Shown one piece after another: positions 14,001 to 52,488 of a stretch of DNA of 56,874 nt. Position 1 is the first letter of the stretch, and every line of letters begins with the position of its first letter. A program made the position numbers and the translations under genes. The notes below the pieces were generated by a model. The model worked only from the letters and a program-made list of their open reading frames with translations, did no database searches and was not told where the DNA came from. Source of the stretch: Candidatus Omnitrophota bacterium (lineage in GTDB: Bacteria > Omnitrophota > Gorgyraeia > Gygaellales > Profunditerraquicolaceae); assembly GCA_016208765.1 (NCBI GenBank), contig JACQXK010000015.1, forward strand, positions 1 to 56,874. Reading direction: 5' to 3'.

Positions 14001-15435
14001 TTCGGGAATGAGCGAAGGTCAATTCCGGAAAGTGGAAAGATTATTATTAACCTTAGTTACAACAGAAGCTTCTGGGAAATTATTAGGAGTAATGGCCGAA
14101 AAAACTTTGGCCGCAGTGCGCGCCAATCATTCGCGATTTTCCCATGCGCAATCTGTTAAGCAAAATCAGCCGGTAGTTACAGGCTTTCTTCGTGAAACAC
14201 AGTCTCCCAAAGAAATTGAAACTATTATCAGGCTATTCTCCGGGTTGTTAGAAGAATTGCAGTATTCAAAAGGGAACGAGCCTGAGAGGCGTTTAGCTAT
14301 AGATATGCTGGGAAATTTAGGCGGAATGAACAAGGAGCAATTTTTTAGAGTAGTTGAGACTATTCATAAGTATCTGTTTTATAGTTCGTTTCGTTATTTT
14401 GAAATTGCCGCAGAAAACTTAAGAGGCCTATTTGTATGGTATTACCCAATCAGAGACCCTGAAAATAAAAAGCTTTTTGATAAATTTGAAGAAAATCTTG
14501 ATAGGATTAGAAAGCTGGAAGAAAATGGAGCTGCAGAATCTTCTCGGAAAATCGCCTTTATTATATCCTTGTTGAAAGATTTTGAATTATATAAAAAGAA
14601 TGGAAGGTTTTTAATGCTTGAAGAACTGGCTCCAATAACTACTCCTGTTATTTATAAAAATCTTGCTAAGGATGCGGTTACATATTATGTGCGGGATTTG
14701 GTTAATTCTAACAAAAACAAACCACTGGGCGGGGTGGGGGAGATAAATATTGCTTTACTTCAAGCTCAAATTGATAAGGCTGTTGAGCGGCTTGCTACTT
14801 TTGTGCATGGAGAATTTATTAATGGGCAAATTCCTGTTTATTCGGATGATAGGCAGCAAATTCAGGCATTTATGCAGGCAGCAGGCAGAATATTAGAAAA
14901 CAAAAATTACTGGTGGGTTAAGGCAAGCATTAATCAGGCGGCATATCATATGCGGCTGATTGAAGAGGCGCAACAGAAGGAAGTAATGAGCTCTTCTTCG
15001 GTAAATTCTGATTTAGATAATGTGAAGAGAGCTATTGGGAATGGTGACGAGTCATGGCTTGGGGAGTTATCAGGAAGCTTAGATCCTGAAGCGGCTCGCA
15101 TGGCGCAAAATGCCCTTTCTGATATGCGTAATAGACAAAATCAAAATCCTAGAGGTGATGGTAGATACTATAGTGGCAGGAGAGATACTCCATATTTTAA
15201 TAATGTGAATAGAATTGAAGAGTATTGGAAAGTGAGAGATGACTGGGGCAAGAGTAGAGGTTCTTCTGCTATCACGACAGCAGCGAGCCCTGCTGGTTCT
15301 CTTGATTCCAGTGGGATTTTAGATGTTGCTGCAATGGCGGATTCGGGATTTAATTACAAGGAAGAATATTCGTGTTTCCTCGCCATTAGCCACAGACTGG
15401 ATTTACTTGCGAGACAATTTCAAAAATATCTTTGA
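11050..15435 (+). CDS. modular secreted protein of unknown function (frame A, 1461 aa)
   Basis: AAGGAGG SD. Signal peptide MSKKINKVVALFLTISFVFQQVGFAQ. Helical modules are separated by Ser/Pro linkers (AASPLG, AASPISAEY, GSSPLQSAGSPVED, GSSSPVGEG, AASPAGS). It ends TGA TAA. Confidence 0.8.
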   Translation: MSKKINKVVALFLTISFVFQQVGFAQIAGVELNLAGALVRMQGNVVTDKFRPAHMRFFSYDSLHNNFKLILDKGDLKNLKGTELDNVSKELMNYFLVGVTLNNDAFWVNLRPDSENEIIDNLLAKTDVGKIMLEADLELKKDTASFTSPQTTEGKAYWNKLYKKAEELFGSDQITIPTLTRPWIVPDEVIVRENKDSAYVYKASLKVMLEQDHLKNSVKYSFKDPRQKELNEYSSQLIRELIIPKLNREVNTSKKYSQLRQVLFSLILSRWFKSRFQGKAGDYAALINKANLANLTSKTAWSATTYFKAYQESFNKGEYNIKEPVYTPTGQVIRSYFSGGADLTGKSLPAFGNTAASPLGFGALPGIGDITSALKNNRDMVSVGGADKSAASPISAEYAAQMLKNILSRLEDELDTNLLNQARNLLENEPLKTALHQKDQVYQNQGFINQVINIFLGIKIKGERTIPELQSVLTIGSLISSNFLQQLSGKFLERIYDQVRGSFVEENIRSMAILFDSELGRSFLNPNSFKKLIEIFLSNVVSEIDNMMPPPSYKNDERLILIERYGSKVLKDFIIPNCRFIIGGQDTGIFDTVLSNLDDIGPGIDIKNEFDKMNKEQFIKFYNHLFSALLFSKKRTVDGDNKIIEQIKDISSVYFSGSSPLQSAGSPVEDNEALKLLSGYVRDFKDAFNRCMREISQSVIGITSSSGSVGLVMSGSIIDGSLGTMRTSIDELDKFELENVPKDRISTYLTTLGALKKEVESAAKNDSVRRNDYHRVQALVSEFIDKLTGIQKVPSGPQAGSSSPVGEGASFKATDMSNAFLRFKGTLNLMPEVNKQRGMRPGNLALAVSTEALEETLNILKDILEGVDVLIEKAEINRALDLLRNYKEQLKGDLDPTGPMYKYLWLIRDADDAIGKAIKKLEGKSAASRGGASSALLNDGSAKEREKIWQPDEIDAAIAQAEKTNVTGPNTNDDYRAVVRLADISGMSEGQFRKVERLLLTLVTTEASGKLLGVMAEKTLAAVRANHSRFSHAQSVKQNQPVVTGFLRETQSPKEIETIIRLFSGLLEELQYSKGNEPERRLAIDMLGNLGGMNKEQFFRVVETIHKYLFYSSFRYFEIAAENLRGLFVWYYPIRDPENKKLFDKFEENLDRIRKLEENGAAESSRKIAFIISLLKDFELYKKNGRFLMLEELAPITTPVIYKNLAKDAVTYYVRDLVNSNKNKPLGGVGEINIALLQAQIDKAVERLATFVHGEFINGQIPVYSDDRQQIQAFMQAAGRILENKNYWWVKASINQAAYHMRLIEEAQQKEVMSSSSVNSDLDNVKRAIGNGDESWLGELSGSLDPEAARMAQNALSDMRNRQNQNPRGDGRYYSGRRDTPYFNNVNRIEEYWKVRDDWGKSRGSSAITTAASPAGSLDSSGILDVAAMADSGFNYKEEYSCFLAISHRLDLLARQFQKYL

Positions 15436-40444: not shown

Positions 40445-40573
40445 AATTAGCAATTTGTGATTGGGCGTGTCCCGTTACAAATTGCCGCTCTTTAAATTTT
40501 AGTACAATTTGTGATTGGGTGGGCGTGCCCCGTTACAAATTGTCGGCTCTTTAAATTTTAGTACAATTTGTAA
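40445..40573 (+). repeat. two tandem ~54/59-nt units, each a degenerate copy of the tRNA-Pro leader and 5' end plus its inverted complement
   Basis: Unit structure is TAG(T)ACAATTTGT-GATTGGG(TGG)GCGTG(T/C)CCCGTT-ACAAATTG(C/T)C(G)GCTCTTTAAATT. The third copy of TTAGTACAATTTGT runs straight into the tRNA (AACGGGGCGTG). Confidence 0.85.
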
Positions 40574-40651
40574 CGGGGCGTGGCTCAGTTTGGCTAGAGC
40601 GCTTGAATGGGGTTCAAGAGGTCGACAGTTCAAGTCTGTCCGCCCCGACCA
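40574..40651 (+). tRNA. tRNA-Pro(GGG) with encoded CCA
   Basis: CGGGGCG/CGCCCCG acceptor stem, anticodon loop ATGGGGT, T loop TTCAAGT, and ACCA at the 3' end. Confidence 0.9.
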
Positions 40652-41030: not shown

Positions 41031-42245
41031 ATGAGAAAAATAAACTTGGGAATAATCGGTTTTGGGAATGTAGGCGCAGGGGTTATAAAAATTTTGCGCG
41101 AGAAGAAAAGTTTGTTATCCGAGAAAATTGGCATTGAAATAAATGTCAAGAAAGTTTGCGACAAAGACATAATTTCCAAAAGAAACGTAAGCGTTGATAA
41201 GGCTCTTTTGACCCGTAATCCTAAAGATATCCTTGATGATCCGCAAATTGATATTGTTGTTGAGCTTGTAGGAGGAATTAATCCTGCAAAGGAGTTTATC
41301 ACAAGCGCGTTAAATAAGGGAAAGCATGTGGTAACTGCGAATAAAGCATTGCTTGCCCAGGATGGGCAGGAATTGTTAAGCCTGGCTGATGACCGGGGAA
41401 AGAACATTTATTTTGAGGCTTCTGTAGGCGCGGGTATCCCGATAATTAAATCTGTCAGGGAAGGCCTGGTTGCCAATAATTTTAAAAGTGTATATGGTAT
41501 AGTAAATGGAACGTCCAATTTTATTTTATCGCGGATGTCGGAAAATAACTGTACATTTAATCAGGCATTAAAAGAAGCGCAGGAAAAAGGTTTTGCCGAA
41601 AAAGACCCTACCTTAGACATAGAAGGGATAGATTCCTGCCACAAACTGGTTTTGTTGACCTATTTATGTTTCGGCAGGTTTATTAAGATCAGCGATGTTT
41701 TTGTTGAGGGAATATCCAAAATTTCAACGGCTGATGTTTGCTATGCTAATGAAATTGGCCTGCAGATTAAGCTGCTTGCGATTGCAAAAAAGGAAGGCAA
41801 TGATCTTGAGGTCAGGGTGCATCCGACATTAATACCAAAGTCAAGTTTGTTGGCATCTGTTTCCGGAGTTTTTAACGCGATTTATGTAGATAGCGATTTG
41901 GCAGGCGATTTGCTTTTTTACGGGCCCGGGTCCGGACAGTTGATTGTTCAGGATAAAACAATCAGGAACCTGAGAAGTACAGATGATTTTGAAAGCAGAT
42001 ATTATATTCGTTTTATGGCTTTGGATAAACCCGGGGTACTTGCAAAAATCTCCGGAGTCCTGGCAAAGTTCGGGATTAGTATTGCTTCGGTGACCCAAAA
42101 GGAACATCGCAAGGCCCATGTTGTGCCGATAGTAATGATAATCCATCAGGCAAAAGAAAAAAATTTACGCCTTGCCTTGGCAGCCATCAGCCGATTGGAT
42201 GTAATCAAAGAGGCAGCAGTGGCAATCAGGATGGAAGAGATATGA
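41031..42245 (+). CDS. hom: homoserine dehydrogenase with C-terminal ACT domain
   Basis: LGIIGFGNVGAGV, HVVTANKAL and EASVGAGIPII motifs. ACT domain (DKPGVLAKISGVLAKFGISIASV). Confidence 0.9.
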   Translation: MRKINLGIIGFGNVGAGVIKILREKKSLLSEKIGIEINVKKVCDKDIISKRNVSVDKALLTRNPKDILDDPQIDIVVELVGGINPAKEFITSALNKGKHVVTANKALLAQDGQELLSLADDRGKNIYFEASVGAGIPIIKSVREGLVANNFKSVYGIVNGTSNFILSRMSENNCTFNQALKEAQEKGFAEKDPTLDIEGIDSCHKLVLLTYLCFGRFIKISDVFVEGISKISTADVCYANEIGLQIKLLAIAKKEGNDLEVRVHPTLIPKSSLLASVSGVFNAIYVDSDLAGDLLFYGPGSGQLIVQDKTIRNLRSTDDFESRYYIRFMALDKPGVLAKISGVLAKFGISIASVTQKEHRKAHVVPIVMIIHQAKEKNLRLALAAISRLDVIKEAAVAIRMEEI

Positions 42246-43333
42246 AGAGCAATAGGTATCAAGGTTTAATTAACAAATACCGGAAGTATCTTCCGGTTTC
42301 AGATAAAACGCCTGTTATTACTTTAAACGAAGGGAATACTCCTTTGATTTATGCCGGTTATTTATCGGGATTGATCGGCAAAAATATTGAAGTTTATTTA
42401 AAGTATGAAGGCTTGAATCCTACAGGTTCTTTTAAGGATCGCGGGATGACCATGGCAATATCCAAGGCCTGCGAGGAGAAATCAAGAGCAGTGATTTGCG
42501 CCTCAACAGGGAATACTTCAGCTTCTGCTGCTGCATATGCGGCAAGGGCTGGTATAAAATGTATTGTGCTTATTCCCGAGGGTGCAATTGCTTTAGGTAA
42601 ATTAAGCCAGGCATTAATTCATAATGCTGAGGTTTTGGCGGTTAAGGGTAATTTTGACGATGCGCTTATGCTGGTAAGGGAAATTTCCGGAAAATATCCT
42701 GTAACTTTAGTTAATTCGCTTAATCCATACCGCATTGAAGGGCAAAAAACAGCGAGTTTTGAAATTTGCGATTTTCTTGAAGCAGCTCCTGATTTTCAGG
42801 TAATGCCGGTTGGAAACGCAGGAAATATTACTGCATATTGGAAAGGGTATAAAGAATATCGTGGTTCAGGAAAAATTAAAACTTTGCCTAAGATGCTCGG
42901 TTTTCAGGCCGCAGGGTCTGCCCCGATTGTAAAAGGCCATCCTATAAAACATCCTAAAACAATTGCTACTGCAATTAAGATTGGAAATCCTGCCAGCTGG
43001 AAACAGGCTGAAAATGCCCGCGATGAATCAGGCGGATTAATTGATATGGTTACAGATAAAGAGATTATTGCAGCTTATAAATTGCTGGCAGCCAAAGAGG
43101 GTGTTTTCGCAGAACCTGCATCCTGCGCTTCCGTCGCTGGGCTCATAAAATTTTCCAAGAGCGGCTATTTTAAAAGGCGACAGGCGACAGGCGACAGGCG
43201 ACAGGCGACAAAGATAGTTTGTATTTTAACCGGCCATGGTCTCAAGGATCCTGACCGTGCAATTAAAAGTGTAAAAGCGCCAAAAGTTGTAAAGCCGGAT
43301 TTGAAAGTAATATTGAAAGAGATTGGGTATTGA
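42242..43333 (+). CDS. thrC: threonine synthase
   Basis: PLP-lysine motif NPTGSFKDRGMT and TGNTSASAAAYAA. ATGA overlap with hom. Confidence 0.9.
   Translation: MKSNRYQGLINKYRKYLPVSDKTPVITLNEGNTPLIYAGYLSGLIGKNIEVYLKYEGLNPTGSFKDRGMTMAISKACEEKSRAVICASTGNTSASAAAYAARAGIKCIVLIPEGAIALGKLSQALIHNAEVLAVKGNFDDALMLVREISGKYPVTLVNSLNPYRIEGQKTASFEICDFLEAAPDFQVMPVGNAGNITAYWKGYKEYRGSGKIKTLPKMLGFQAAGSAPIVKGHPIKHPKTIATAIKIGNPASWKQAENARDESGGLIDMVTDKEIIAAYKLLAAKEGVFAEPASCASVAGLIKFSKSGYFKRRQATGDRRQATKIVCILTGHGLKDPDRAIKSVKAPKVVKPDLKVILKEIGY
43176..43210 (+). repeat. heptanucleotide tandem array (GGCGACA)x5 inside thrC
   Basis: The sequence is ggcgacaggcgacaggcgacaggcgacaggcgaca. In the thrC frame it encodes RRQATGDRRQAT. 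Confidence 0.95.
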
Positions 43334-43368
43334 TAACTTAATTCGTAACTCGTAAATGGAGAGATTGA

Positions 43369-44007
43369 ATGAAGCTAAAAAATAAACGAATTCTTATTAC
43401 AGGCGGGCCGACGTGGGTTCCTATTGATAATGTTAGAGTGATCAGTAATGTAGCCACTGGAGAAACCGGCGTGATTTTAGCCGAAAAGTTGATTAAAGAA
43501 GGCGCAAAGGTTACATTACTGCTCGGCCCTGCAACAAACCGTTGTTTAAATAAGAAAATCAGAGTTTTAAATTTCAGGTATTTTAGTGATTTATTAAGGT
43601 TGATGGTTGATGAGGTAAAACAACGCAAGTATGATGTTTTAATTCATTCAGCGGCAGTTTCAGATTATTGCCTTGAATCTGCGGAAAAACTAAAAATCAG
43701 CTCAAATCTTAAAAGATTAAAACTTGTTTTGATGCCTACTCCCAAAATCATTGATTTAATAAAGAAAATTGATAGTTCAATTTTCCTGGTTGGTTTTAAA
43801 TTTGAGTTAGGTATCAGCAAGGAAGGGCTGATTAAAAGGGCCCTTAATTTGATCCGGCGCTCAAAGCTTGATTTAGCAGTAGCGAATACAATTTCCGGAG
43901 AGCATTATGAGTCTTATGTTGTTGATTATGGGGTAGTAAGCGAGCCTTATTACAGCAGAGAGAAGTTGGCGGACGGTTTGATTAAAGAAATCGCGCAGGA
44001 GTTGTGA
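43369..44007 (+). CDS. coaB: phosphopantothenate-cysteine ligase, stand-alone CoaB domain
   Basis: ILITGGPTWVPIDNVRVISNVATGETG matches the CoaB half of CoaBC. No flavoprotein (CoaC) half is attached. Confidence 0.75.
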   Translation: MKLKNKRILITGGPTWVPIDNVRVISNVATGETGVILAEKLIKEGAKVTLLLGPATNRCLNKKIRVLNFRYFSDLLRLMVDEVKQRKYDVLIHSAAVSDYCLESAEKLKISSNLKRLKLVLMPTPKIIDLIKKIDSSIFLVGFKFELGISKEGLIKRALNLIRRSKLDLAVANTISGEHYESYVVDYGVVSEPYYSREKLADGLIKEIAQEL

Positions 44008-44017
44008 AATTATCTTA

Positions 44018-44911
44018 ATGCGTAAAATTCTCCTTTTCTTTTTATTTGTTTTACTTTTTCTAATAAGCTCTAATATTTTTGCTTTTGAATTTCCACAGCC
44101 TCAAGGCTGGGTTAATGATTTTGCAAACGTTATCAATCAGGAATATAAAGATAAGCTTAACGCATTAATCAGCGAACTTGAGCAAAAAACTTCTGCTGAA
44201 ATAGCGGTAGTTACAGTTGAATCAATTTCTCCATATGATGAAAAAGAATATGCAAGGCAGGTTTTTGATAACTGGAAAATAGGCAAGAAAGATAAGGATA
44301 ACGGCATACTGGTTCTTTTGGCCATAAAAGAAAGGCTTTGGCGGATAGAAACTGGATATGGCGTAGAAGGAATCTTGCCTGATGGGCTTTGTGGTGAAAT
44401 AGGCCGTAATTATATGGTGCCATATTTTAAAGAAGGTAATTATGCGCAGGGTTTGTATAATGGCGTCGCGGCTATCTCAAAGATAGTTGCTTTAAATAGC
44501 AATGTGGCGCTTAGCAGTTTATCCGGGGCAAATCTTTCTAACGGAGTAAATTTTGCTAAAGGAAGACAACCTAAGTCCGATCTTTTTGTTAACTTGTTTG
44601 CCTTTTTTTTCTTTTTGGTTTGGAATTTGCCTTGGCCAATTTTTATCGGTTTGCCGTTTACCATTATTTTTGCTTTGGTCTTCTTTCAAATTTCGTTTTT
44701 TTCCGGAAGTCTTGTTATTGCAGGCTATTTTGCGTCATTAATTATCAGGTTTCTTTATTGGAAAAGGCTGCCTCCGGGGAAAAGAAGCAATTTCTTTAAA
44801 GGGCAAAATTATGGAGGAAGATTTTCTGGCGGCGGTGGTTTTGGCGGAAGCGGCTCAGGAGGATTTGGCGGCGGGGGTGGAGGCGGTGGTGGCGCAGGGG
44901 GCAGATTTTAA
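44018..44911 (+). CDS. TPM-domain protein with TM segments and Gly-rich tail
   Basis: Signal peptide. GWVNDFANVINQEYKDKLNALISELEQKTSAEIAVVTVESI is the TPM phosphatase-like domain. C-terminal GGGGFGGSGSGGFGGGGGGGGGAGG. Confidence 0.8.
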   Translation: MRKILLFFLFVLLFLISSNIFAFEFPQPQGWVNDFANVINQEYKDKLNALISELEQKTSAEIAVVTVESISPYDEKEYARQVFDNWKIGKKDKDNGILVLLAIKERLWRIETGYGVEGILPDGLCGEIGRNYMVPYFKEGNYAQGLYNGVAAISKIVALNSNVALSSLSGANLSNGVNFAKGRQPKSDLFVNLFAFFFFLVWNLPWPIFIGLPFTIIFALVFFQISFFSGSLVIAGYFASLIIRFLYWKRLPPGKRSNFFKGQNYGGRFSGGGGFGGSGSGGFGGGGGGGGGAGGRF

Positions 44912-49871: not shown

Positions 49872-51533
49872 ATGGAAATCCCATCTCGTTACAATCCAAA
49901 AGAAACCGAAGATAAATGGTATAAATTCTGGCAAGAGCAAGGCTTTTTTGCAGCAAAGCCAAACCCTGATAAAAAGCCATTTACCATTGTTATCCCTCCG
50001 CCCAATGTTACGGGTATTCTGCATATGGGGCATGCTTTAAATAATACTATTCAGGATATTCTTATTCGTTACCATCGTGCAAAAGGCGAAGAAGCGCTTT
50101 GGATGCCGGGCACTGACCACGCGGGTATTGCCACGCAAAATGTGGTAGAAAAGTCTATCGCTAAAGAAGGCTTAAAGCGCAATGATTTAGGAAGGGGAAG
50201 ATTTATTGAACGCGTATGGCTTTGGAAAGAGCAATACGGCTCAACAATTATCAAGCAGCTAAAAAAACTCGGCGCTTCTTGTGACTGGGATCGTATTCGT
50301 TTTACCATGGATGAGGATTATTCCAAGTCAGTTCTTGAGGTTTTCGTCCGCCTCTACGAAAAAGGCCTTATATATCGGGGCAGTTATATTATTAACTGGT
50401 GTCCGCGTTGTCAGACTGCCTTGTCTGATGAAGAAGCGCCTCATCATGAGCTGCAGGGAAATCTTTATTATCTGAAGTATCCATTGAAGGATAATCCTGA
50501 TGAGTTTGTGGTTGTGGCGACGACGCGCCCTGAAACCATGCTTGGTGATACTGCTGTTGCGGTTAATCCCAAAGATAAAAGGTATAAGAAACTGATTGGA
50601 AAAAGTTTGATTTTGCCGCTTGTAAATCGCGAGATAAAGATTATAGCTGACAGTATGATAGATGCTAAGTTTGGCACCGGTGCAGTTAAAGTTACCCCTG
50701 CGCATGATCCAAATGATTATGCAATGGGTAAAAAGCATGATCTTGAATTTGTTAATGTGATGTATCCGGATGGCAGGATGAATGAATCAGCCGGCGACTA
50801 TAAGGGTATGGACCGGTTTGAGGCAAGAGAAGTAATTTTAGAGGACTTAAAAGAAAAAGGCCTGTTAGAAAAAATTGAGCCGCATACTTTGTCAGCCGGG
50901 CATTGTTATCGCTGCCATACAATCATTGAGCCGTATTTGTCTAAACAGTGGTTTGTTAAAATGGCTCCATTGGCAAAGCCAGCTATAGAGGCAGTTAAAA
51001 AAGGTAAGATAAAGTTTTATCCCAAGCGCTGGACTAAAGTATATTTAAACTGGATGGAGAATATCCAGGATTGGTGTATTTCAAGGCAGATTTGGTGGGG
51101 GCATCGTTTGCCTGTTTACTATTGTAAAAAATGCGAAGAGGCTCAAAAAACTGGAGTTATTGTTTCCCGCGACAGGCCTGAAAAGTGCCCGGAGTGCGGG
51201 TCAATAGATATTTATCAGGATGAAGATGTTTTGGATACCTGGTTCTCAAGCTGGCTCTGGCCATTCGCTACATTTTATTGGCCGTTTGATGGCCGCCAGT
51301 TTGTTGGACAGGAGACAGGAGACAGGAGACAGGAAGATCTCAAGTATTTTTACCCTACCTCCGCTCTTGTGACTGCTCCGGAAATTATCTTTTTCTGGGT
51401 AGCGCGCATGATTATGGCAGGTTTGGAATTTATGAATGAGATCCCGTTTAAGGATGTGTATATCCATGGCACGGTGCGTGATATTGAAGGTAAGAAAATG
51501 TCCAAGTCTCTGGGCAATATTATTGTTATCTAA
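49872..51533 (+). pseudogene. valS: valyl-tRNA synthetase, N-terminal 553 codons (catalytic + editing domains), ending 9 codons after KMSKS
   Basis: HIGH-type motif [15 protein letters not shown], a CP1 editing domain, and [10 protein letters not shown] followed by VI-stop instead of the conserved DP..[8 protein letters not shown]. Confidence 0.85.
51306..51334 (+). repeat. heptanucleotide tandem array (GGAGACA, about 4 units) inside valS
   Basis: The sequence is ggaca ggagaca ggagaca ggagaca gga. In frame it encodes [10 protein letters not shown]. Confidence 0.95.
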
Positions 51534-52488
51534 GGAGAGGCTTGAGCAAGGCAGGAACTTTGCCAATAAAATCTGGAATGCTTCGCGATTTATCCTGATG
51601 AACCTGGATGCCCAGAATATCCGGGTAGATTTGTGCCAATTTACAAAAAAAGAAGACCTGAGTTTGGTAAATCGCTGGATCTTGAGCCGTTTTTATTCGG
51701 TGCTTAAAGAATTAAATAAAAATCTTGATAATTTTAAATTTAATGAAGCCGCAAACCTTTTATATAGTTTTTTCTGGCATGAATTCTGCGATTGGTATTT
51801 AGAATTGGCAAAGCCAATTTTGGTTAACAGAGAACAGAGTACAGAGAACAGAAATACGCAGGTGGTAATGTACAAGGTGCTGGAGAAGTTTTTAAGAGCG
51901 CTGCATCCGTTTATGCCTTTTATTACCGAGGAGATTTGGCAGAATTTACCGCACGAAGGTAAGTCTATAATGGTTCAGCCGATTCCTCATTTGCAAGAGG
52001 CGTTAATTGACAAAAAGATTGAAAATAAAGTTGGAGTTGTGTTTGATGTAATTACGACTATTAGAAATATGCGCGTAGAATTGGAGGTTTTACCTCAGGA
52101 TAAAGTTAATGTAGAAATATTTTCCGGTAAAACCATGAAAATTACGCTTGAGTTAATGTCGCAGGATATAAAAAACTTGGCAAAAATTGATTGTTTAAGC
52201 CTTCAGGAAAATTATCAGCACAAGAGCGGCCAGTTTGTAAATGTTTTAAAAGATATGCATATCGTAATTCCTCTGGCAGGGCTGATTGACATTGATAAGT
52301 ATAAAGAGAAGCTAAAGCAGCGTATAGTAAAGGCAGAATCCGATATAAAAGCAAAAGAAGCTATGCTTTGTAATGATAGTTTTGTTAAACGGGCTCCGGC
52401 TGAAGTTGTGGGTAAGGAGCGGGAGAGGCTTGGGGAATTAAAGGATTCGTTGCACAAACTAAAGGCGGTGAAAGATGCCATCGGCTAA
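51529..52488 (+). pseudogene. valS: valyl-tRNA synthetase, C-terminal part (anticodon-binding + coiled coil) in a different frame
   Basis: Homology resumes at [25 protein letters not shown]. The listed upstream part of this ORF (from 51436) is out-of-frame overlap with the N-terminal part. It ends in the typical coiled coil. Confidence 0.85.

Follow-up and report, generated by a model that had tools for sequence, protein, structure and literature searches.

How does a perfect tandem array with a seven-nucleotide unit come to lie within the coding sequence of a biosynthetic enzyme, where the gain or loss of one unit shifts the reading frame? The question is raised by a 56,874-nt stretch of DNA from a Candidatus Omnitrophota bacterium (contig JACQXK010000015.1, assembly GCA_016208765.1; hereafter the window), in which thrC, the threonine synthase gene, contains five consecutive copies of GGCGACA. 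Some bacteria are known to contain strikingly many heptanucleotide repeats, which lack an accepted explanation for their origin and have mostly been treated as intergenic elements. A sequence-only reading of the window had proposed that the thrC array has the geometry of a slipped-strand contingency switch. We conclude that it is probably a hypermutable heptanucleotide microsatellite in a permissive loop of the protein, shaped by slippage and by filtering for the reading frame, and a tolerated by-product rather than an evolved switch.

Results

The gene and the array occupy the following positions in the window.

42242..43333, + strand: thrC (threonine synthase), intact, 363 aa (open reading frame (ORF) list, PF00291, 2zsj match)
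43175..43210, + strand: heptanucleotide array (AGGCGAC)x5.1, equal to (GGCGACA)x5, 36 nt, perfect and in frame, encoding RRQATGDRRQAT

Direct reading of the sequence gave five mismatch-free copies of GGCGACA at 43176-43210, and Tandem Repeats Finder (TRF), run on the window, returned 43175-43210 with period 7, 5.1 copies, 100% matches and a score of 72; the five perfect units of the sequence-only reading were borne out by both. As had also been claimed, the array is in frame, in the context ..GYFKRRQATGDRRQATKIVCILTGHGLKDP.. of the translated 363-aa ORF. This ORF was assigned to threonine synthase by its PALP domain (PF00291, precomputed), by full-length similarity to the solved Aquifex ThrC (2zsj; E=5e-148, residues 4-363) and by the pyridoxal phosphate (PLP)-lysine motif PTGSFKDRG found in its translation. 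The nearest homologues, 91-92% identical, are named threonine synthase and come from metagenome-assembled genomes of Candidatus Omnitrophica/Omnitrophota.

The pattern GGNGACAGGNGACA matched the window six times, against 0.09 matches expected from shuffles. Perfect period-7 runs of at least three units start at 43175 and 51307 only, and no run of any other period from 5 to 12 reaches three units anywhere in the window. Two-copy heptamers at 14874, 24841, 35452, 43598 and 46810 were rejected as probably due to chance, on the basis of a rough estimate that about five perfect runs of 14-15 nt are expected in 57 kb. Hairpin or cruciform formation by the arrays was likewise rejected, since neither strand of either array folds better than shuffles.

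The sequence of the window occurs in four groundwater-metagenome runs (X1-X4), which were represented by Logan contigs (k=31). A 380-nt contig of run X3 covers 43038-43417, that is the array and both flanks, with zero differences. Array-length variants at the thrC locus of the window were absent from the Logan contigs, which cannot show rare alleles.

Compared with the solved structures 2zsj and 6cgq, ThrC of the window has nine additional residues between ..GYFK and ..IVCILTGHGLKDP, and the alignment with its closest relatives showed seven; the insertion suspected from the sequence alone is thus real. In an AlphaFold2 model with a predicted template modelling score (pTM) of 0.84, the insert was placed between the helix 292-306 and the strand 323-329. 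The mean predicted local distance difference test score (pLDDT) was 60 for residues 311-320 and 92 and 91 for the flanking blocks. The array lies in a surface loop that appears structurally permissive. The same loop is the hypervariable spot across 120 ThrC orthologues (76-92% identity). Its length is bimodal, with 5-7 aa in 22 orthologues, 11-14 aa in 84 and a few at 19 and 23-25 aa, and these lengths look roughly like quanta of seven residues.

The closest relatives, L001-L003, are three independent assemblies with the gene order of the window and 87% DNA identity in thrC; one syntenic contig came from the NCBI assembly GCA_020063045.1. At the same site they carry two AGGCGAC units, as against five in the window, and the sole indel between their thrC and that of the window is 21 nt long, exactly three units, which adds seven residues.

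Alleles that differ only by unit number, one ON and one OFF, were seen for the orthologous arrays of two other lineages, in which two ThrC proteins within 90%-identity clusters terminate inside the loop array. L204 is identical to L206 at 5805 of 5811 positions (99.9%, 5.8 kb) and lacks exactly one ACCGAAC unit, which gives a ThrC of 333 instead of 370 aa; the longer in-frame allele is present in all three assemblies L206, L207 and L208. Similarly, L205 is identical to L209 at 6990 of 6990 positions (100%) and lacks exactly one CGGTCGA unit, and its ThrC has 329 instead of 370 aa. The expectation that a single-unit change frameshifts thrC was thus confirmed in the thrC loop of two sister lineages, not at the window's own locus. 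Reading of the proteins showed that the N-terminal heptamer array of each truncated ThrC is the same as in its full-length sibling, and hence that arrays are not systematically collapsed by the assembler. The truncation deletes the invariant residues C327...D336, so the alleles are, judging from the sequence, almost certainly null. OFF alleles account for 2 of about 72 evaluable cluster members, a rough figure since the ascertainment of truncated proteins is biased. Copy number usually changes by three units, which keeps the frame, and occasionally by one, which breaks the gene.

The repeat census was made on 1.07 Mb comprising the window and 83 related loci. With a minimum of three copies, TRF found 31 non-redundant period-7 arrays and at most six of any other period. 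A self-match scan (at least four copies and at least 80% self-match) gave 14 arrays of period 6, 39 of period 7, three of period 8, two of period 9 and none of period 10 or more; shuffled sequence contained no period-7 arrays. The thrC array thus has the properties by which a heptanucleotide long simple sequence repeat (LSSR) is recognised: at least three head-to-tail copies of high identity (5.1 perfect ones), copy-number polymorphism (5 vs 2 units between the window and its closest relatives; 4 vs 5 and 3.x vs 4.x between near-identical contigs of other lineages) and over-representation of period 7 compared with other periods and with chance. The units vary between lineages, and arrays occur in the loops and N-termini of proteins as well as in intergenic DNA. 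The idea that the array is something special to thrC was not supported: heptamer arrays occur lineage-wide, also in valS and in a nadC-like ORF. Seven arrays lie outside long ORFs. Split genes were rejected as an explanation for these intergenic arrays, since each is located where a gene ends and has stop codons in its unit.

The ThrC orthologues were also tested at the peptide level for stretches of at least seven residues that a perfect 7-nt array could encode. Such stretches are present in 32 of the 120 proteins, against 0.7 per 120 after shuffling, and are confined to two places, the loop and residues 3-13 at the N-terminus. Loop arrays were verified on DNA in L010, L014, L016 and L019. 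The loop units form groups of related heptamers (AGGCGAC/AGGACAC/AGACAGA; CGAACCA/CGAACTC/CGAACAC; CGACGTG/CGGCGTG). P0102 and P0167, which belong to one 90% cluster, have CACGGTA and CTCCGTA, respectively, with the same two positions changed in every copy. This is replacement of the unit throughout the array, i.e. concerted evolution, between very close relatives. Together with the related unit groups, it shows the arrays to be old occupants of the site, with a faster turnover than the flanking sequence. A contig scan for (GGNGACA) arrays of at least three units returned many phyla, with filamentous cyanobacteria prominent, and no Omnitrophota among the matches listed.

The valyl-tRNA synthetase gene of the window contains two further arrays.

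49872..52488, + strand: valS (valyl-tRNA synthetase), appearing as ORFs 49872-51533 and about 51534-52488
51307..51334, + strand: (GACAGGA)x4, equal to (GGAGACA)x4, perfect, in frame in valS (TRF, direct reading)
51826..51852, + strand: (AACAGAG)x3.9, 90% matches, in frame in valS, encoding NREQSTENRN (TRF)

The near-identical array that had been noticed in valS corresponds to 51307-51334, whose unit differs from the thrC unit by one base. It is kept in L001 with one mismatch and lies between the motifs WP and DLxYFYPT of ValRS, a site occupied by a 14-aa loop in more distant relatives. At this site L004 has (GTCACTC)x4 and a degenerate second array, and L002 has a long degenerate GCGAYAW-like insert. 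The array at 51826 sits in a 21-nt insertion relative to L001/L002. Both valS arrays are spanned, unchanged, by a Logan contig of X1.

In the window valS is frameshifted into two ORFs, as it lacks 86 nt at 51525/51526 that are present in L001/L002. A 1279-nt Logan contig of X2 has exactly 86 extra letters at this joint, which shows that valS is intact in the population; the possibility that it is a pseudogene was rejected on these grounds. Similarly, the window hom lacks 81 nt (27 aa, in frame) at 41942/41943 compared with L001/L002, and Logan contigs of X2 and X3 have exactly 81 extra letters there. Both gaps are local assembly drop-outs. The arrays, which the Logan contigs reproduce exactly, are unaffected.

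Several minor observations concern other genomes. Just downstream of thrC, L032 (3267-3470) has the inverted heptamer pair AAGAGTG/TCTTCAC four times, and L051 (2046-2212) has GTTCAAG x4.7 facing AACCTTG x9.6; such inverted pairs could form long hairpins. The unit GTTCATG of the N-terminal ThrC array in P0054 and P0161 contains ATG, and the two proteins differ only in which ATG within the array is called as the start. In-frame inserts of another kind are present at the ThrC loop or N-terminus in P0074, P0111, P0158, P0025 and P0152, e.g. ..SRQSGIPPKAGKRA.. and ..LPTGRQ.., and, judging from the peptides, may be encoded by GC-rich palindromic DNA. At the ValRS site an insert of this other kind was seen in L012 (17248-17319), where the DNA shows repeated GGGACTGTCCC, and also in L048 (11208-11354).

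Discussion

We propose that the arrays gain and lose units, with strand slippage at replication as the most likely mechanism; loops of 7 nt should escape mismatch repair. Purifying selection on the reading frame would then filter the resulting alleles. Three-unit changes (21 nt, 7 aa) would persist, and single-unit changes, which shift the frame, would stay at low frequency. The units would be rapidly homogenised within an array, with the consequence that the unit at a given site differs from lineage to lineage. Mechanically, thrC can be flipped between ON and OFF at this site, yet this ability would be non-adaptive.

Classical contingency loci, as in Haemophilus, Neisseria and Campylobacter, have units of 1-5 nt, are enriched in surface or host-interaction genes and usually have the repeat near the 5' end. 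The arrays of Omnitrophota resemble such tetranucleotide and homopolymeric simple sequence repeats (SSRs) in that a slipped-strand indel in a coding SSR causes a frameshift which is reversible in principle, but they lie in housekeeping genes and permissive loops, and the ON state is strongly favoured. Another comparison is offered by the Borg elements of Methanoperedens, which encode in-frame amino-acid tandem repeats that create disordered regions, with units that are multiples of 3 nt. Here too, perfect and fast-evolving nucleotide repeats inside ORFs add low-complexity, probably disordered peptide; in contrast, the Omnitrophota unit has 7 nt and the frame is kept only in three-unit steps. 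The known precedent for a switch, and the one well-studied heptanucleotide switch within coding DNA, is neuO, the O-acetyltransferase gene of phage CUS-3 in E. coli K1, with its coding heptanucleotide AAGACTC tandem repeat of variable copy number (VNTR) (PMC13001214). As in thrC, a 7-nt array lies in an ORF, the number of copies is altered by slippage (the likely mechanism in thrC), the full-length protein is made only if the frame is kept (at neuO, with copies divisible by 3) and every three units add a seven-residue repeat. The neuO array numbers 3-53 units and lies in the 5' region of a gene that is accessory, surface-modifying and carried by a phage; of 64 genomes, 65.6% are OFF, near the two-thirds share that an unselected frame would give (PMC13001214). 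The thrC arrays, on the other hand, number 2-5 units and lie in a 3'-proximal loop of an enzyme with a housekeeping role. They are seldom OFF (2 of about 72), and an essential gene has arrays of a similar kind.

Heptanucleotide repeats are the most abundant LSSR class in most prokaryotic genomes, and polymerase slippage has been suggested as their source (PMC4679880, PMC4692102); for the survey of Mrazek et al. 2007 we refer to its content as summarised in these two papers. Known examples are the short tandemly repeated repetitive (STRR) sequences of cyanobacteria (Calothrix, Nostoc), GGGNATC of Xanthomonas and Nostoc, TAACTGA of Beggiatoaceae and GGGACCG x4 of Geobacter metallireducens. The Omnitrophota arrays share with them the over-representation of period 7, copy numbers that vary between relatives and, sometimes, inverted pairs; they may also share the favoured genome-specific units at many loci. 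Like the Geobacter elements, they are found within genes as well as in intergenic DNA. The described LSSRs are mainly intergenic and are discussed as regulatory or G-quadruplex elements, whereas many arrays of Omnitrophota are in frame in conserved housekeeping enzymes and their units differ widely among close lineages; the thrC unit has GG runs only and is predicted to be a poor quadruplex former.

Of the properties of phase-variable loci, the thrC array has a coding SSR with a unit that is not a multiple of three. Both phases are not common, with 2 of about 72 OFF against 65.6% at neuO, although this comparison suffers from biased ascertainment. Nor are the SSRs concentrated in conditionally useful genes, as they also occur in valS, the nadC-like ORF and intergenic DNA. 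The OFF state of valS should be lethal. The rarity of OFF alleles, the arrays in valS and the restriction to insertion-tolerant positions fit a by-product better than an evolved contingency switch. Of the earlier proposal, the switch geometry and the frameshift alleles stand, and the dedicated switch is not supported.

Several points weigh against simple slippage with frame filtering. The evidence at the window's own locus comes from contigs, and slippage or heterogeneity there is putative. The OFF alleles were taken from consensus assemblies and could be choices of the assembler rather than dominant alleles, and their low fraction is biased, as clustering and listing tend to miss truncated proteins. 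Simple local slippage cannot go from two to five units in one step, and the single-unit intermediates are out of frame. Distant arrays of one genome share their unit (at most one mismatch) in 11 of 21 within-locus pairs, compared with 15 of 504 pairs (3%) between loci (p=1e-10; about 20-57 kb per genome, composition uncorrected). Finally, period 7 dominates though periods 6 or 9 would be frame-neutral, a preference which slippage and filtering leave unexplained.

The shared units are one reason to consider sequence-specific seeding or maintenance beyond slippage, by a dispersing or templated repeat or through selection for binding of a genome-specific protein or RNA to a favoured heptamer, with the thrC copy as a tolerated insertion. 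This is possible, although we do not think it likely. Some of the sharing pairs are separated by 5-14 kb, namely in L004, L083, L077 and the window (thrC-valS). Further contigs from the same metagenomes have GGCGACA/GGAGACA-like arrays elsewhere, with a depth of 58 against about 7 at the array. Different lineages have different units at the same sites, and the (GGNGACA) arrays of at least three units in many phyla, filamentous cyanobacteria above all, among the matches listed point in the same direction. Genome-specific favoured heptamers (TAACTGA, GGGAATC and GGGACCG) have been documented in other bacteria, also without a mechanism (PMC4679880, PMC4692102, PMC2700814), and binding-type selection has been proposed for the cyanobacterial STRR, Xanthomonas GGGAATC and Beggiatoaceae TAACTGA repeats. 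On the other hand, no candidate protein or template has been identified, and the units are not uniform within a genome, as the third array of the window and the arrays of L008 and L010 differ. The purine-rich composition of the coding strand could inflate the similarity of units, and in some of the within-locus pairs two inverted arrays lie side by side as a single composite element. A more far-reaching proposal, which we find rather unlikely, is that an active sequence-specific process seeds and homogenises genome-specific 7-nt arrays chromosome-wide, essential genes included, in Omnitrophota and perhaps in other phyla. High-frequency reversible knockouts would then be lived with or exploited, and thrC would be a true prototrophy switch in a cross-fed or host-dependent nanobacterium. 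It is also unlikely, in our estimate, that thrC is simply an adaptive contingency locus, at which a bacterium that is ultra-small and possibly host-dependent or cross-fed would profit from turning threonine synthesis reversibly ON and OFF; OFF cells would save its cost when threonine is supplied and would revert by slippage. The geometry is right for this, with a perfect array inside the coding sequence and a unit that is not a multiple of three. Natural single-unit OFF alleles occur in two lineages whose backgrounds are otherwise identical or nearly so, and one of these alleles comes from a sample series with ON sisters. The array persists at the ThrC site across many lineages, neuO is a precedent for a coding heptanucleotide array that is ON only at multiples of three, and host-dependent traits are described for Omnitrophota (PMC10066038). 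Against this, about two thirds of neuO alleles are OFF and OFF is rare here, equivalent arrays are present in valS, with its presumably lethal OFF state, and in the nadC-like ORF, and the thrC array is a loop insert close to the 3' end rather than a 5' element. The presence of arrays wherever insertions are tolerated suggests that selection filters rather than targets them.

A function at the protein level, with the charged RRQATGD heptad insert selected for solubility, interaction or regulation of ThrC, appears very improbable. The insert is kept in frame, R, K, T and Q abound in the loops of most orthologues, and longer heptad tracts raise the activity of NeuO (PMC13001214). Yet the loop shows no sequence conservation whatever from one lineage to another, about 22 of the 120 orthologues and the solved ThrC structures have only a short loop of 5-7 aa, conservation is at the level of the DNA period and not of residues, and the model confidence of the loop is low. 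Least credible, with hardly any weight in our judgement, is an artefact of assembly or sequencing, with a spurious array or a spurious number of copies. The window does show local losses in hom (81 nt) and valS (86 nt) where Logan contigs of the same samples have the full sequence, and the Logan contigs of X1 and X2 break at the thrC array. The X3 contig, however, spans the array and both flanks with zero differences, the unit recurs at this site in three relatives that were assembled independently, and arrays are present in dozens of independent assemblies.

In the literature searched, no report of heptanucleotide repeats in Omnitrophota was found, and two genome surveys of the phylum were without tandem-repeat or heptamer terms. 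Both heptanucleotide LSSRs and a coding switch of this unit length have been described before. What appears to be new is how pervasively such microsatellites lie in frame in housekeeping enzymes, with recurrent sites, concerted evolution and natural knockout alleles. In this uncultured phylum heptamers are the dominant repeat class, lie in frame in conserved housekeeping enzymes and recur at the same loops with different units, homogenised faster than point mutations accumulate. They provide a natural system for asking why 7 nt is favoured, how arrays arise in essential genes despite frame-breaking single-unit steps, and what share of new protein loops and of the mutational load comes from microsatellites. 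In practical terms, such arrays will yield apparent pseudogenes and length variants in metagenome-assembled genomes.

Genomic surroundings of thrC

Between thrC and the stop codon of hom there is an overlap of 4 nt. The neighbouring genes, all on the + strand and all housekeeping, are hom, a DFP-domain gene, aspartokinase, an HMGL-like synthase, valS, nadC and uvrB. Every long ORF inspected in 38.5-55 kb has + orientation, the + strand of the three heptamer arrays is rich in purines, and GC skew is positive in all 2-kb bins of the window (0.03-0.27).

Repeats of other periods were seen at two places. A 59-nt unit is repeated 2.3 times at 40451-40582, directly upstream of and running into tRNA-Pro(ggg) (40574-40651). 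Within each unit are an inverted repeat, CAATTTGT..ACAAATTG, and a duplicate of the 5' end of the tRNA; integration or duplication events that recurred at the tRNA may have left this remnant. A TPM-phosphatase-like ORF (44018-44911) has a glycine-rich C-terminal tail (GGGGFGGSGSGGFGGGGGGGGGAGG) with period-9 and period-12 repeats, especially at 44866-44894, and its orthologue in L007 has a period-21 array at the tail.

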